39,738 nucleotides of DNA from a virus (IMGVR_UViG_3300050134_000089:1-39738), one strand, 5' to 3'; counted from the stretch's first letter, positions 6,708-23,518 are shown. Notes: a model not told the origin generated them from the sequence alone. Made by a program: numbers and translations.

Positions 6708-7043
6708 CAATTCTGTTACCACCTTATAGAGGCGAGTAGGTCATTTCTGCCTACTTCTCGGATTTTATTTATATTCCGAGTTCGGACTATCGCATACGTT
6801 ATTTCTAACGTCTTCGGGATTTAGTCTCTCAGGCTGATATGAATATTTAAGATGGTTATTCCAAGAATCGATAATCTCTTTTGCAGCTTCTTCACTTCCG
6901 AAAAACTCTGCAAAGGATTGAGTCGTGATTACTTTACCATCTTTATGTTCTTCTTTCATATCTTGCCCCTTGTTAACCTTCTATGCTGCCATAGCAAGGC
7001 ACTCCAAGTCAATTACCCAAAGTTTTAATTCGGCACACATTTT
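6708..7043 (-). mobile_element. Group I-like intron C in the capsid gene (336 nt)
   Basis: P1 hairpin AUUCGGU-aaaaugugu-GCCGAAU (7050..7028) with a U-G wobble at the phase-0 splice site. Shared blocks UUGACUUGGA and AACAAGGGGCAAGAU, hairpin GUAGG-cagaaauga-CCUAC, and 3' end GGUAACAGAAUUG. Contains ORF 6765..6959. Confidence 0.7.
6765..6959 (-). CDS. Intron C-encoded small protein (64 aa), homolog of the intron A ORF
   Basis: SD-like AAGGGG 8 nt upstream. FAEFFGSEEAAKEIIDSW...YSYQPERLNPEDV aligns with THIFDSYDECIDIIRQICRYNQPERSKREDV of ORF 8249..8572. No known homing-endonuclease motif seen. Confidence 0.55.
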   Translation of the reverse strand: MKEEHKDGKVITTQSFAEFFGSEEAAKEIIDSWNNHLKYSYQPERLNPEDVRNNVCDSPNSEYK

Positions 7044-7220: not shown

Positions 7221-7911
7221 CAATCTGTTACTTTTGTGACCTGTTCTTTATACAGGCGGAGAAACCTCTTCGGATCTCTCTCTCATAGTTACCTATGAGT
7301 TCAGACTTTCGCATCTCTATTTCTAGAGTCCAACCGCTAAGTCGTTCACGGTGGTATTAAATTACCATTTATGTTAACCTTTAAGAAAAGGAGAACACTC
7401 ATGTGGACAAACGAACAACTTGCCTATCTTGCTGGAGTAATCGACGGTGAAGGCACGATTTACGTTTCTAAAAGAAAAAATCGCGGTCTTGATGATTATT
7501 GGCCAAGAGTACAAATTGTAAATACCAACAAACCAATGATGGTATATATCCACAATACGTTTGGTGGTCTTTTTTACGAAAAGAATAGGAGTAAGCATTC
7601 CAAAAAATGGAAAACACAATATGAATGGGTTACAAATCGAACCCTTATGGATATCATATTGCCTTTGGTTATTCCCTATCTCATCTGCAAAAAACCGCAA
7701 GCTGAATTGATGATAAAATTTAGAGATACCTTTCAGAAAAACACCAAAATTCGTGTCTCTCAAGAAGTTTTGACTCTTAGAATCGATATTTTTCATCAAA
7801 TGCAATCCTTAAACAAACGTGGCATTTAAAACCTTCCGCCTTGTTGCCCTTTCACCAGGGTGATAAGGATTTCCAAGTCAATCAGGTTAGATTTATCGAG
7901 GACTAATTTTA
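7221..7911 (-). mobile_element. Group I-like intron B in the capsid gene (691 nt) with antisense LAGLIDADG gene
   Basis: P1 hairpin GAGGAU-uaaaauua-GUCCUC (7917..7898) with a U-G at the phase-0 site. AUAAAUCU..CUGAUUGACUUGGAA block nearly identical to intron A. GNRA hairpins CUCUA-GAAA-UAGAG and CUCAUAG-GUAA-CUAUGAG. 3' end AAGUAACAGAUUG. The P1 loop is complementary to the start of exon 3 (UAAUUUUG), which is P10-like. Confidence 0.7.
7401..7829 (+). CDS. LAGLIDADG homing endonuclease (single-motif, about 142 aa), antisense to its host intron
   Basis: MWTNEQLAYLAGVIDGEGTIYV... carries the LAGLIDADG motif (LAGVIDGEG). AAGGAG SD 8 nt upstream of the ATG at 7401 (the track start 7371 is less likely). 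The size fits homodimeric I-CreI-type enzymes. Confidence 0.8.
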   Translation: MWTNEQLAYLAGVIDGEGTIYVSKRKNRGLDDYWPRVQIVNTNKPMMVYIHNTFGGLFYEKNRSKHSKKWKTQYEWVTNRTLMDIILPLVIPYLICKKPQAELMIKFRDTFQKNTKIRVSQEVLTLRIDIFHQMQSLNKRGI

Positions 7912-8076
7912 ATCCTCGGCTTGGCGCATGGCTACAGCAAGTCTTTCACTCACCCAAGCCAATACCTTTTACGCCGCAGCTAAGAGGGCGTATTCACCCT
8001 CCTGATCTTGAAGTATCACCTGTTCATTGATGATACAACCAGTTCCAAAAAAAGCCATTTGCGCATCGATTATGTC
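7912..8076 (-). CDS. Major capsid protein, exon 2 of 4 (contains in-frame TAA at 7969..7971)
   Basis: DIIDAQMAFFGTGCIINEQVILQDQEGEYALLAAA[TAA]KVLAWVSERLAVAMRQAED. It starts after the intron A terminal G (8077) and ends at U7912. The sequence on both sides of the TAA reads as a continuous capsid E-loop/spine-helix region in one frame. Confidence 0.65.
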
Positions 8077-8656
8077 CTATCTGTTACTTATTGACCTAAA
8101 TTAATCCGGAGGATGGAATCGAACCATCGTGGGACTGACTTGTCACTTTCGTGGTTTGTCGCTGTCCGATCCCTATCACGGGACTGCCTCACACCATTAT
8201 GGCATCTCTAGCATATTTAGGCGGGCCAAATCTTCTCAGCTGGCCTCACTATTTCTCAATAGTGTTCAGAGCACCGCATCGCATACATAATGTTTGATCT
8301 TTAGGCATCCATGTATTCATATGTCCTAATTCTTCACATTCTTTATATACGTCTTCTCGCTTGCTGCGTTCAGGCTGATTATATCTGCATATTTGACGAA
8401 TAATATCGATGCATTCATCATAACTATCAAAAATATGTGTTAAACAAACTTCTTCTTGATTATGTATCATTTCACCCATCAAAAAAAACCCTGAGTGACA
8501 TTTTTGAACCCAAATATGTGAAATGTTTCTAAGATTAAATGCATCATCACTTTCTAAATATATCCATTCCATAATCTTGCCCCTTGTTGTCCGTCCACTT
8601 TATGCGGCGAGGAGTTCCAAGTCTATCAGAGAAGATTTATACAGCGCAACACGTCT
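8077..8656 (-). mobile_element. Group I-like intron A in the capsid gene (580 nt)
   Basis: P1 hairpin ACAGCGU-agacguguu-GCGCUGU (8663..8641) with a U-G at the phase-0 site. P10-like pairing GACAU/GUGUU with the exon 2 start. Shared blocks CUGAUAGACUUGGAA and ACAAGGGGCAAGAU. CAC-GAAA-GUG hairpin. 3' end AAGUAACAGAUAG. Contains ORF 8249..8572. Confidence 0.7.
8249..8572 (-). CDS. Intron A-encoded small protein (107 aa), no recognisable nuclease motif
   Basis: AAGGGG SD-like box upstream of the ATG at 8572. The N-terminal 65 aa resemble free-standing ORFs 19845..20036 and 20085..20291. The C-terminal part shares QPER..EDV with the intron C ORF. Confidence 0.6.
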   Translation of the reverse strand: MEWIYLESDDAFNLRNISHIWVQKCHSGFFLMGEMIHNQEEVCLTHIFDSYDECIDIIRQICRYNQPERSKREDVYKECEELGHMNTWMPKDQTLCMRCGALNTIEK

Positions 8657-8896
8657 ACGCTGTGGAACCTGTGCAGGGGGGTCGATGCCCGAATTTCCCA
8701 ATTGAATAGTTGGGGGAATCAAGGCTCTTGGTCTCATAAAACGGCATGTAGTTCCGCCATTAACAGGCATCGAAACCTTATCGCAGACCGTAATATAGTT
8801 CATGGTAGGAGTTGGGACGTAAAGCATAGCGGGAGCTAAGCTTTGTAAGATCATCGGCCCCAAATTTCCTGTATTCGTAATCATGAGTTTTCCCAT
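8657..8896 (-). CDS. Major capsid protein, exon 1 of 4
   Basis: MGKLMITNTGNLGPMILQSL...TTCRFMRPRALIPPTIQLGNSGIDPPAQVPQR. The F.R...L....L.(E/N)G..P pattern is typical of HK97-fold capsid proteins. Track ORF 8600..8896 continues into intron A (..VALYKSSLIDLELLAA*). Confidence 0.75.
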
Positions 8897-9045: not shown

Positions 9046-9255
9046 TTACCAAAACAATTCATAGTTATTGGGAATCTTTTTCATTCTGTATTCATCAGTT
9101 TTTGGTTTGAATCCATGTTTAGATTCATCTTTCACAGGAACATAATAGTAATTCGAATGTGAATGAATACTCCAGACATATTGCGACAAATCTTCATCAT
9201 CTTTTATGCGGACTAATTTATGTATATCGCCGCCGATCAAAGCATATTTCTCCAT
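9046..9255 (-). CDS. Hypothetical small protein (69 aa)
   Basis: Track ORF on the operon strand, between the scaffold and capsid genes. No motif recognised. Confidence 0.45.
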   Translation of the reverse strand: MEKYALIGGDIHKLVRIKDDEDLSQYVWSIHSHSNYYYVPVKDESKHGFKPKTDEYRMKKIPNNYELFW

Positions 9256-9476: not shown

Positions 9477-9713
9477 TTATTTCTTCTTATTTTCTGAATG
9501 GTATCCACAAATAGGGCAATAATTTACTTCAATTTTATGCTGATATCCATCGTCTTCTGAATCGTCACTATCTATGATTAAGTATAATTTTCCTAAATCC
9601 CATCCATATTCTATACATTTAAAAAAATAACTTTTTGAATAACATTTATGTTGAATAGGAGAAATGACATTTTCATAATTTCCGTTTTCTAACATCTTCA
9701 TTTCGGTTTTCAT
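9477..9713 (-). CDS. Hypothetical small protein with C-terminal CxxC (78 aa)
   Basis: Track ORF. ...HKC...KC...NYCPICGYH suggests a zinc-ribbon-like knuckle. Confidence 0.45.
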   Translation of the reverse strand: MKTEMKMLENGNYENVISPIQHKCYSKSYFFKCIEYGWDLGKLYLIIDSDDSEDDGYQHKIEVNYCPICGYHSENKKK

Positions 9714-9766
9714 ATGGATAATTTTTAAAGCATATTACGCAGAAAAACCAATCTGTGTATATTTCT

Positions 9767-10048
9767 TCAGGTATTATTTTGCTCTTGCATACGGGGCAGT
9801 TCATTTTTAACTTTTAGTTCGATAGATTTGCATAGTGGACATTTCCATAGGATGGTTTCTCGCTTATCTTCTTCAATAACCATATTGTGAAAATAAAATA
9901 TATGATTGTTTTCGCAAATCATTTCAGTATATTTTTTTTCTTTTAACATATTCAAGTGATCAATTAATCGGATAAAATAATCTTCAAACTCATCTAAAGT
10001 GATATTTTTTAAATCTTCATCGTTCGGTTTTTCTAAAAACATCATCAC
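9767..10048 (-). CDS. Hypothetical small protein with CPLC knuckle (93 aa)
   Basis: Track ORF. ...MICENNH...WKCPLCKS. No other motif. Confidence 0.45.
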   Translation of the reverse strand: MMMFLEKPNDEDLKNITLDEFEDYFIRLIDHLNMLKEKKYTEMICENNHIFYFHNMVIEEDKRETILWKCPLCKSIELKVKNELPRMQEQNNT

Positions 10049-19844: not shown

Positions 19845-20036
19845 TTAGAAATATGTATATGAAAAATCATCCATAAATTTGTTGGCTTCATCTTCAGATT
19901 GACATTTATAAATATCAAAAGCCGATTTATGAGTTCTAGCTAAAACATAAACTCCATGCGACTTTTTATATGCTTCTATTGAAACAATATGTCTAGTATT
20001 TACATAGCCACCATGAATACATTTAATAAGCCTCAT
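19845..20036 (-). CDS. Small protein, family shared with the intron ORFs (63 aa)
   Basis: MRLIKCIHGGYVNTRHIVSIEAYKKSHGVYVLARTHKSAFDIYKCQSEDEANKFMDDF.. is a paralog of 20085..20291 and resembles the N-terminus of intron A ORF 8249..8572. Confidence 0.5.
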   Translation of the reverse strand: MRLIKCIHGGYVNTRHIVSIEAYKKSHGVYVLARTHKSAFDIYKCQSEDEANKFMDDFSYTYF

Positions 20037-20084: not shown

Positions 20085-20291
20085 TTATCTAATTTCTAAA
20101 TAAATATTTTGCAAATAATTTTCTGCTTCCTCTTCATTTTTAGATCCGAATAAACAATATTGATCTTCATGAGTAGCTGCAAAAACTTTATAAATATCAT
20201 CAATTTCACATATGAAAAAGGTAATTACCTTATCTACATTTAAAATATTTCCCGCATATGTTTTAATAAATCTCATAAATCTCATATCCAT
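20085..20291 (-). CDS. Small protein, family shared with the intron ORFs (68 aa)
   Basis: ..RFIKTYAGNILNVDKVITFFICEIDDIYKVFAATHEDQYCLFGSKNEEEAENYLQNIY.. is a tandem paralog of 19845..20036. Confidence 0.5.
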   Translation of the reverse strand: MDMRFMRFIKTYAGNILNVDKVITFFICEIDDIYKVFAATHEDQYCLFGSKNEEEAENYLQNIYLEIR

Positions 20292-22445: not shown

Positions 22446-22775
22446 ATGTATAGAAAAGATGAATATTGGACCCCTTACGATGATTGGGTCACGGAAGATA
22501 TGAAAAATCAACGCATTCAAAAAGAGATGCAGAATTATAGACAAGAAGCCCTGAAAAAGTTCGCGTCAATCGTTCCGCATCCTAAATTTACTCTTGATAT
22601 TGCTTTGACCGTAATTTATGGATACCGAGAGAGTTTAAAGCAAGCCGAATCTATTATAGAAAAACTAAAACTAGATGAAATGGAAATTTTATCAATCGAG
22701 GAAAACTTTAAATCTTTCTCAGATATGTATACTAATATGGTCGCAAATCAATACGCAGAGGATAGAGCAATATGA
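22446..22775 (+). CDS. Hypothetical protein (109 aa)
   Basis: Track ORF, coupled (ATGA) to the annealase gene. Confidence 0.5.
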   Translation: MYRKDEYWTPYDDWVTEDMKNQRIQKEMQNYRQEALKKFASIVPHPKFTLDIALTVIYGYRESLKQAESIIEKLKLDEMEILSIEENFKSFSDMYTNMVANQYAEDRAI

Positions 22776-23518
22776 ATCAGTTAGCATTAGTGAAGGATAA
22801 TTCAATAGAGTATGCGGTTATTGAGCAAGTCGTCATAAACGGCGACCTGCAAAAGCTAAATCCTCAGCAAAGAGTTACGTATTACAATAGAGTATGTGAG
22901 ACAATGGGACTTAATCCATATACTAGACCGTTTGATTATATCGTGTTAAACGGAAAAATGACCCTATACGCTACTAAAAATTGTACTGAACAACTGAGAA
23001 AGTTAAATGGGGTCTCGATTGAAAAAATAGAGTCAAAAGTAATAGACGACCTATACATAGTCCAAGTATCAGCCAGAGATAAACATGGTAGATTAGATGC
23101 TTCTACTGGAGCTGTCACAATCGGACATCTCAAAGGCGATGCTAAAGCTAATGCTATCATGAAAGCTGAAACAAAAGCCAAAAGACGCGTAACTTTGAGT
23201 ATTTCTGGCCTTGGATGGATAGATGAAAGCGAAACCGATTCCATCCCTGGAGCTAAGAAAGTGGAAGTAGATATGAATACGGGAGAGCTTTTAACAGAAG
23301 GTTCAACGAATAAATACATAACCAAAGAGCAATGGTTAGAGCTAAATTCCTTAATTAAGGAATGCTCTCAAGAGTTTCAAGATAAAATATGGAAAAGACT
23401 TGAATCTCTCCAAGTTATAGAATTTTCTGATCTTGAAACTGATATTTTTATAAAGATTAAATCTGCTTGTCAAGGGCATGTGAATAAAAATAAGCAAACA
23501 AATGGGGAGAAACCATGA
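22772..23518 (+). CDS. RecT/Redbeta-superfamily single-strand annealing protein
   Basis: 248 aa. ..TMGLNPYTRPFDYIVLNGK.. parallels lambda Bet QYGLNPWTKEIYAF, and ..NAIMKAETKAKRRVTLSISGLGWIDESE parallels Bet ..MLRHKAMIQCARLAFGFAGIYDKDE. Lies upstream of a YqaJ-like exonuclease. Confidence 0.65.
   Translation: MNQLALVKDNSIEYAVIEQVVINGDLQKLNPQQRVTYYNRVCETMGLNPYTRPFDYIVLNGKMTLYATKNCTEQLRKLNGVSIEKIESKVIDDLYIVQVSARDKHGRLDASTGAVTIGHLKGDAKANAIMKAETKAKRRVTLSISGLGWIDESETDSIPGAKKVEVDMNTGELLTEGSTNKYITKEQWLELNSLIKECSQEFQDKIWKRLESLQVIEFSDLETDIFIKIKSACQGHVNKNKQTNGEKP

Follow-up and report, generated by a model that had tools for sequence, protein, structure and literature searches.

A group I intron in a phage capsid gene probably carries a small non-nuclease passenger gene in loop L6a

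INTRODUCTION

The usual picture of group I introns is that of a ribozyme combined with a homing endonuclease. In the td intron of phage T4, the enzyme is I-TevI, a GIY-YIG homing endonuclease whose gene is looped out of the P6 region, and translation of this ORF is restrained by RNA structure around its start. The rps3 gene, which resides in a group I intron of the fungal mitochondrial large-rRNA gene, encodes an essential and fixed ribosomal protein. Group I introns are also known from the capsid genes of the mycobacteriophages LittleE and BAKA and the lactococcal phage Tuc2009; one of these introns carries a LAGLIDADG gene on the bottom strand, and one has no ORF (PMC3706429). An "intronic protein rps3" is listed, for example, in PMC5529405.

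The DNA analyzed here, referred to below as the window, is a 39,738-bp viral record (IMGVR_UViG_3300050134_000089) that represents a complete phage genome with direct terminal repeats. The original prediction, made from the sequence alone, had grouped the ORFs of two introns (A and C) with two free-standing early genes in one small family without nuclease motifs. Our analysis shows the intron A ORF to be a chimera, in which a small gene, probably for an accessory passenger protein and not a homing enzyme, is seated in loop L6a of a group I ribozyme.

RESULTS

Group I introns in the major capsid gene

The portal and terminase genes lie upstream of the major capsid gene on the minus strand, and the final capsid exon matches a major-head-protein PHROG. 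BLASTN and TBLASTN searches of a phage record collection returned no useful match, and a scan of viral contigs recovered 212 related loci, 80 of which (L003-L082) were examined in detail. Exon borders were mapped by aligning the intronless capsid gene of the related phage L008 (321 aa) to the window, which revealed inserts A, B, and C of 580, 691, and 336 nt, respectively, plus a separate 30-nt insert within exon 2.

8884-8657, 8076-7912, 7220-7044, and 6707-6285, minus strand: capsid exons 1 to 4, from the L008 alignment
8077..8656, minus strand: group I intron A, 580 nt, separating exon 1 from exon 2 of the capsid gene (L008 aligns to 8657 and resumes at 8076)
6708..7043, minus strand: group I intron C, 336 nt, from covariance model R1 and the exon borders of the L008 alignment

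Some of the 80 loci have an unbroken capsid gene; in the others, inserts occur at about eleven (at least 11) different positions, with up to four inserts in a single gene (e.g., L024, L037, and L053).

No Rfam family was found in the window, either at the gathering score or at an E value of ≤10, a result that bears on the coverage of the library and not on the fold. A structural alignment was made from 22 ORF-less inserts of 190 to 260 nt from related phages. RNAalifold recovered P3, P4, P5, P6/P6a, P8, and a hairpin of the P9 region (P9.x) from these sequences, and with P7 added as a pseudoknot, 94% of the cells in the alignment pair, compared with ∼40% when the partners are slid by 1 to 3 columns. 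Compensatory changes on both sides occur in 30 of the 36 pairs, including three of the five in P7, and none of 500 shuffles matched the observed values. The covariance model built from this alignment (R1) matched intron C over its full length (7028-6709; 114.9 bits; E value, 5e-26) with a 117-nt insert in L6a, intron B in both halves (78.6 and 36.8 bits), and intron A in the 5′ half (34.5 bits) and at 8190-8298 (24.9 bits). Covariation and R1 matches together delineate the group I core, comprising the P4-P6 domain, the P3-P8 domain, and the P3/P7 pseudoknot. Read directly from the sequence, all three introns have a P1 hairpin, in which G pairs with the final exon base, U, and all three end in G, at borders that agree with the intronless capsid gene. 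In intron A, P1 joins exon bases 8662-8657 to 8647-8642, the junction is a U.G pair, and the intron closes with G at 8077. By these features, inserts A, B, and C are classified as group I introns, and their self-splicing is predicted.

Several other elements were observed in the same regions. The P9.2 region of intron A (8095-8221, minus strand) holds a ∼115-nt insert that is closed by a 7-bp stem and folds no better than shuffles (z, −0.42); a T-arm-like motif within it (8128-8112) was considered as a tRNA and rejected, as ARAGORN finds none. A weak R1 match at 1954-2060 on the plus strand (18.8 bits; E value, 0.0025) falls within a structural gene on the opposite strand.

The 30-nt insert of exon 2 (7967-7996, minus strand) contains an in-frame TAA and occupies a bona fide intron site, where other phages hold LAGLIDADG introns of 976 to 1,184 nt. 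A P1-like hairpin with a U.G pair at the junction is formed between its first bases and the exon end, and its last base is G. A homologous 49-nt version is present at this site in L044, and three more mini-inserts of 41 to 67 nt at other intron sites likewise have P1 and the terminal G; the related loci with such inserts are L044, L011, L019, and L047. These mini-inserts could be nonautonomous mini-introns that use a core in trans or remnants that require translational bypass.

The intron A ORF extends through the ribozyme core

Both intron ORFs named in the original prediction exist on the minus strand, at 8572..8249 (107 aa) and 6959..6765 (64 aa), and the same 14-nt box precedes both ATG codons (8587-8574 in intron A and 6973-6960 in intron C).

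8249..8572, minus strand: intron A ORF, 107 aa, joining a domain encoded in the loop to a tail encoded by the ribozyme core
8378..8572, minus strand: L6a cassette, 195 nt, encoding residues 1-65, with the folded domain in residues 1-62
8574..8587, minus strand: shared box, formed by P4′, the P6 5′ strand, an AA bulge, and the start of P6a
8352..8377, minus strand: QPERSKRED-encoding stretch, with P6a′/P6′/J6-7 (8377-8370), the P7 5′ strand (8367-8362), J7/3, and P3′ (8358-8352)
8280..8351, minus strand: extended P8 hairpin, also encoding a Cys-x4-His ... Cys-x2-Cys module (about residues 77-100)
8247..8279, minus strand: J8/7 and P7′ (8279-8264) and the P9 hairpin (8264-8247), by sequence mapping; P9 holds the ORF stop
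8600..8602, minus strand: exon-1-frame stop codon in loop L5, 27 nt before the ATG, ending ORF 8600..8896
6765..6959, minus strand: intron C ORF, 64 aa, with residues 1-41 encoded by the loop (6959-6837) and residues 42-64 by P6′ to P9 (6836-6765)

The two-part layout of the intron A ORF is mirrored by its 11 homologues, which share the N-terminal part or the tail with it and never both: three share the N-terminal 60-odd residues, and in the other eight, the similarity is confined to the last 43 residues and the N termini are unrelated. Residues 66-107 are the translated core (P6′, P7, P3′, the long P8, P7′, and P9), into which the ORF runs on because the loop supplies no stop codon. Covariation of the P7/P7′ pairs is seen when the common P7 type is compared with the variant one. 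More than 20 different small intron ORFs in the 80 related loci enter the core in the QPER frame; by reading of the sequence, a stop within P6′-P7 closes both remaining frames in cores of the common type.

The elements shared by the ORFs of introns A and C have counterparts in the RNA structure. The start box aligns to columns 60 to 75 of the ORF-less intron alignment, where P4 and P6 show compensatory changes, and its G-run doubles as a Shine-Dalgarno-like element. The 8-nt QPER element (8377-8370 in intron A and 6836-6829 in intron C) consists of the end of P6a, the P6 3′ strand, and J6/7. P6, P7, and P3 covary among the 22 ORF-less relatives, and since the P6 strands covary among three sequence versions in the relatives, the conservation of the QPER element is at the RNA level. 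The "ED" codons are P3′, and the codons before QPER are the P6a 3′ strand, which, as read from the sequence, pairs with bases around the ATG (6 pairs in intron A and 8 in intron C). Peptides of the QPERSKRED and CGALN types also emerge when introns without an ORF are translated, where the spacing between the two peptides varies and stops sometimes intervene. The caution that part of the QPER likeness may be translated ribozyme was thus right, and it reaches further, to the start box, the Tyr/Asn/Ser codons before QPER (P6a 3′ strand), and the ED(V) codons (P3′).

The intron C ORF resembles the intron A ORF at the RNA level

The alignment of the two intron ORFs had been read as protein kinship, which our comparisons do not bear out. 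BLASTP of the whole ORFs reached an E value of 0.008 only; once the ribozyme overlap was removed (intron A residues 1-64 versus intron C residues 1-41), no BLASTP alignment was found even at an E value of 100. A profile of 43 sequences of the intron A family (see below) gave the intron C ORF an hhalign probability of 1.8% over 23 columns, and the family hidden Markov model (HMM), run over 174 ORFs of the window, did not match it. For the loop-encoded part of the intron C ORF (residues 1-41), and for residues 1-30 in particular, no relative was found in the 80 loci. Everything the two ORFs have in common maps to conserved ribozyme helices, and the likeness is therefore at the RNA level. The intron C ORF is not shown by these comparisons to belong to the intron A family and appears to be a different loop insert that is read into the same core.

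A contrasting possibility, in which both intron ORFs and both tandem early genes make up one family and the intron C ORF has decayed and lost its N-terminal part, seems unlikely to us. A deletion derivative is conceivable, given that L062 has a full-length A-type ORF in an intron at the exact intron C site with an identical P1 region, and hhalign places a short "F..SEE.A..II" stretch of the intron C ORF on the C-terminal helix of the family. However, a clean deletion is not apparent when intron C is aligned with L062 at the nucleotide level, MAFFT sets the SEE codons against another part of the domain, and the profile, BLASTP, HMM, and residue 1-30 results above all count against common descent. 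The intron C ORF could be a decayed replacement of an A-type cassette, for which no positive evidence was found in these comparisons. We continue with the reading of the intron C ORF as a separate loop insert.

The N-terminal domain belongs to an unnamed phage protein family

An exhaustive profile search (hmmsearch) with five query sequences against 1.8 billion representatives identified 45 family members at an E value of ≤1e-3, 26 of them at ≤1e-10, with a best match at 1e-36. Most members are 60 to 75 aa long. The HMM of the family (alignment A5) matches the intron A ORF (domain, residues 1-62) at an E value of 7e-33. A few members run on into a QPER-type (ribozyme-encoded) tail, most end after the domain, and one is fused to a Tad2-like domain. 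Free-standing members with no intron core nearby are encoded in L103, directly after a terminase gene, and in tight arrays of small genes in L098-L101. A trimmed alignment was used for the locus scan, as the full A5 was too divergent, and yielded two loci.

AlphaFold2 modeled the intron A domain at a pLDDT of 93.3, with strands at residues 3-6, 10-13, 17-25, 28-35, and 41-43 and a helix at 51-61, and dN/dS relative to the intronic copies in L059 and L062 is 0.3 to 0.4. Taken together, intron A residues 1-62 are a genuine domain, predicted to fold autonomously, of an unnamed phage protein family whose members for the most part seem to be free-standing. PHROGs and Pfam gave no match for any of the four small proteins, and Foldseek found none in the PDB at an E value of ≤0.001, with chemokine- and Sac7d-type rows at ≥0.14. 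A VIA structure search returned PH/PTB-type domains at Z scores of 5 to 6, and this relationship was rejected, as such scores lie below the level that separates a true relative from a common arrangement. The structural neighbors in BFVD are uncharacterized phage proteins, for two of which the TM score is 0.79 to 0.81 (root mean square deviation, 1.8 to 1.9 Å).

These data also bear on the idea that the intron ORFs are chance open frames in AT-rich ribozyme loops and not genes. The loop-encoded part of the intron C ORF, being without relatives, would fit this idea, but for intron A, the 45-member family, the pLDDT of 93, the dN/dS below 0.4, and the free-standing members speak against it, as does the synonymous variation of the tail module described below, and we consider it hardly credible.

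The tandem early genes are probable remote homologues of this domain

The original prediction also placed two tandem early genes in the family, and both exist on the minus strand.

20085..20291, minus strand: free-standing early gene, 68 aa, probably a distant relative of the intron A domain
19845..20036, minus strand: free-standing early gene, 63 aa, paralogous to 20085..20291

The two genes are paralogous (BLASTP E value, 4e-6), and the R1 search found no intron core near 20085..20291. BLASTP of the tandem genes against the intron A ORF was not significant, and a first, shallow profile comparison gave a probability of 5.5%. The 43-sequence profile aligned with a joint profile of the tandem genes end to end over 61 columns (hhalign, 82%; E value, 1e-5), and the domain-trimmed profile reached 91% (E value, 9e-7; score, 32.8). 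As controls, 200 column-shuffled tandem-gene alignments scored a mean of 9.0 (standard deviation [SD], 1.9; maximum, 16.7) and a reversed alignment scored 9.7, placing the observed score ∼12 SD above. Among the 174 ORFs of 40 to 130 aa in the window, 20085..20291 was the best non-self match to the family HMM (E value, 2.9e-4); 19845..20036 alone was not significant (E value, 1.5). In the AlphaFold2 model of 19845..20036 (pLDDT, 72), the elements follow one another as they do in the intron A domain, with boundaries that almost coincide. In the reverse direction, a shallow tandem-gene profile does not retrieve the intron A ORF and scores best on the most divergent family members; word-indexed searches with the tandem genes found one outside homologue only, and a viral-contig scan with their alignment had no match. 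As a remote-homology call, the tandem genes are probably relatives of the intron A N-terminal domain.

The pattern described for the N-terminal half therefore withstood the profile tests, both in hhalign (82 to 91%) and in HMM rank. The proposed single family of four survives for the intron A domain with the tandem genes and fails for the intron C ORF.

The third-best match to the family HMM in the window is a 41-aa ORF on the plus strand (22675-22800; E value, 0.006; 18 columns), which is probably a chance match or a fragment.

A Cys/His module encoded by P8 and P7′

The tail of the intron A ORF contains a module, Cys-x4-His ... Cys-x2-Cys, that is encoded by the extended P8 and J8/7-P7′; the intron A P8 hairpin has a folding energy of −16.6 kcal/mol (z, −3.8). 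Six copies of this module were compared. Codon differences among them are mainly synonymous (four Pro codons, three Gly codons, CGA/AGA, and CTG/TTA/TTG), and the peptide with Cys-x4-His and Cys-x2-Cys is unchanged in all six. Two copies are free-standing genes without a ribozyme (L085:1234-1590 and L084:1384-1608, the latter the same in L086), in which the bases equivalent to the intronic J8/7-P7′ drift at synonymous sites. By these codon patterns, the Cys/His module is under protein-level selection; the tail is therefore more than a by-product, and an intron-related role of the protein is possible. The description of the intron ORFs as lacking nuclease motifs agrees with the Pfam and PHROGs searches, and it overlooked this conserved module in the intron A tail.

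One of the free-standing module genes presumably has a DUF551-like N terminus, judging by its motifs by eye. The second belongs to an array of early genes and is located upstream of one that we take, by eye, to be RusA-like; this module gene still encodes the SKRED stretch, which corresponds to J7/3-P3′ in the introns, and the retention of SKRED in a ribozyme-less gene suggests that the module moved out of an intron. The module is joined to many different N-terminal parts, several of which are zinc ribbons. The tail module has no Pfam match even at an E value of 10, a PDB sequence profile found just a ribosomal zinc-ribbon knuckle (E value, 1.1), and the ESM Atlas feature search returned unnamed clusters only (∼0.78).

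Protein-level conservation of a module attached to many N termini, including zinc ribbons, could also be expected if the intron A protein were a new minimal mobility enzyme, with the tail as a reduced metal-finger nuclease and the N-terminal domain as its DNA-binding part, and the Cys-x4-His ... Asn ... Cys-x2-Cys spacing is, by eye, loosely HNH-like. We regard this as very improbable, as the final HNH metal ligand is replaced by Gly, no HNH or nuclease family matches in Pfam at an E value of 10, the PDB profile yields just the zinc-ribbon knuckle, copies of the N-terminal domain in L059 and L062 lack the module, and homing enzymes are already supplied by LAGLIDADG genes in sibling introns. 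An accessory passenger with a conserved tail remains our preferred reading.

Cassettes and other ORFs in the capsid introns

The A-type cassette measures exactly 195 nt from the ATG to P6′ at three insertion sites: site 224 in the window, site 363 in L059, and site 541 in L062. The window and L059 share a variant-P7 backbone and L062 has the common type, so that the same cassette sits on two ribozyme backbones. The L062 intron has its insertion site and its initial 28 nt in common with intron C, and its ORF is nevertheless A-type. Many other small non-nuclease ORFs, including many zinc-ribbon proteins, occupy the same loop in related phages.

Three free-standing genes lie just upstream of the capsid gene in the window (9046..9255, 9477..9713, and 9673..9804, minus strand). 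Homologues of these three are found within capsid introns of L004, L037, L027, and L045 (tblastn E values, 1e-19, 3e-22, and 1e-7), and all three also have free-standing homologues in other relatives. The 3′ end of 9673..9804 was considered as an intron-core remnant and set aside, because the overlapping gene 9477..9713 begins its coding sequence, conserved at this end, in the same stretch.

Intron B carries a LAGLIDADG gene at 7371-7829 on the plus strand, antisense to the capsid gene, which matches LAGLIDADG_1 and served as a positive control for the nuclease search. Single-motif LAGLIDADG genes of ∼150 to 190 aa, antisense to the capsid gene, occur in intron B and in many related introns, and double-motif genes of ∼290 to 320 aa occur in either orientation. 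Loci listed for LAGLIDADG genes are L003, L011, L021, L030, L031, L034, L035, L044, L047, and L066.

We tentatively propose that L6a may be an exchange site for small accessory genes and that a Cys/His peptide born in the core may since have left the ribozyme for free-standing genes. Under this proposal, cassettes would move between free-standing positions, introns, and ribozyme backbones, with the conserved helices flanking L6a (P4′/P6 upstream and P6′/P7 downstream) as recombination arms. Read-through of the core would then give rise to a peptide module coencoded with P8/J8-7/P7′, which could escape the ribozyme and survive fused to other domains.

Putative function and expression of the intron A ORF

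Searches with the ORFs of introns A and C found no nuclease family in Pfam or PHROGs and, in Pfam, no maturase domain derived from LAGLIDADG or reverse transcriptase proteins. The view of the intron A ORF as a non-nuclease passenger accords with these results, and among the options first offered for it, a hitchhiking accessory gene is the one favored by the comparative data. The best reading is that the intron A protein is an accessory passenger, a putative role, and not the homing enzyme of the intron. Homing would be driven more plausibly by the LAGLIDADG enzymes of sibling introns or by recombination between coinfecting relatives.

Alternatively, the protein might be a maturase-like or RNA-chaperone factor that aids the folding of its own ribozyme. 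It is encoded inside the ribozyme, its tail is coencoded with P8/P7′, Sac7d-type chains appear among the weak Foldseek rows, and small strand-rich domains with a terminal helix are often nucleic acid binders. Nevertheless, the ∼200-nt ORF-less relatives keep all core helices and, judging from this conserved structure, should need no such factor, family members are free-standing far from introns, and the same cassette is found on two different ribozyme backbones. A folding factor is thus a doubtful interpretation, and we retain that of an accessory passenger.

Expression of such a passenger would be constrained by the ribozyme. The ribosome-binding G-run would be locked in P4′/P6 and the ATG in the P6a stem, and translation would therefore be expected only from RNA that is not folded as the ribozyme. 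The exon-frame stop of intron C (6981-6983) lies 21 nt before its ATG, and ribosomes may reinitiate on unspliced transcripts after the exon-frame L5 stop, 27 nt before the ATG in intron A and 21 nt in intron C. A ribosome crossing P6′-P9 would then block the splicing of that RNA molecule.

DISCUSSION

In this large environmental phage clade of 212 related loci, one ribozyme loop carries many different small non-nuclease proteins, some of which are also encoded by free-standing genes. This suggests that introns are able to bring accessory genes into the late transcript with the highest expression. The intron A ORF would be a case of dual coding, in which a reading frame spans the entire catalytic core and part of the resulting peptide is under protein-level selection. 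For annotation, C-terminal likeness of the "QPERSKRED..." type among small phage ORFs flags a ribozyme and not a protein family. As far as the literature was searched, no description was found of diverse, exchangeable non-nuclease loop ORFs that read through the core. Relative to the ∼65-aa phage family, the intron A ORF differs in carrying a ribozyme-encoded tail, which most members do not have.

The introns of LittleE, BAKA, and Tuc2009 are, like those described here, of a self-splicing type and interrupt the major capsid gene, which is highly expressed; the exon closes with U and the intron with G in both cases, and intron B resembles one of them in having a LAGLIDADG gene on the bottom strand. 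In contrast to the single intron per gene in those phages, at least 11 positions of one gene are used for insertion in this clade, and no small non-nuclease passenger ORF has been described for LittleE, BAKA, or Tuc2009. Intron A and the td intron of T4 are both group I introns of phages in which the P6 region loops out a protein gene, and RNA structure around the start, which restrains translation in td, would do so in intron A as well. Unlike I-TevI of td, the intron A protein has no nuclease signature, and its ORF continues through P7, P3′, P8, and P7′ into P9. The rps3 intron is similar in that a group I intron harbors a gene for neither a homing endonuclease nor a maturase, whereas the passengers found here are diverse, exchangeable small phage proteins with free-standing homologues.
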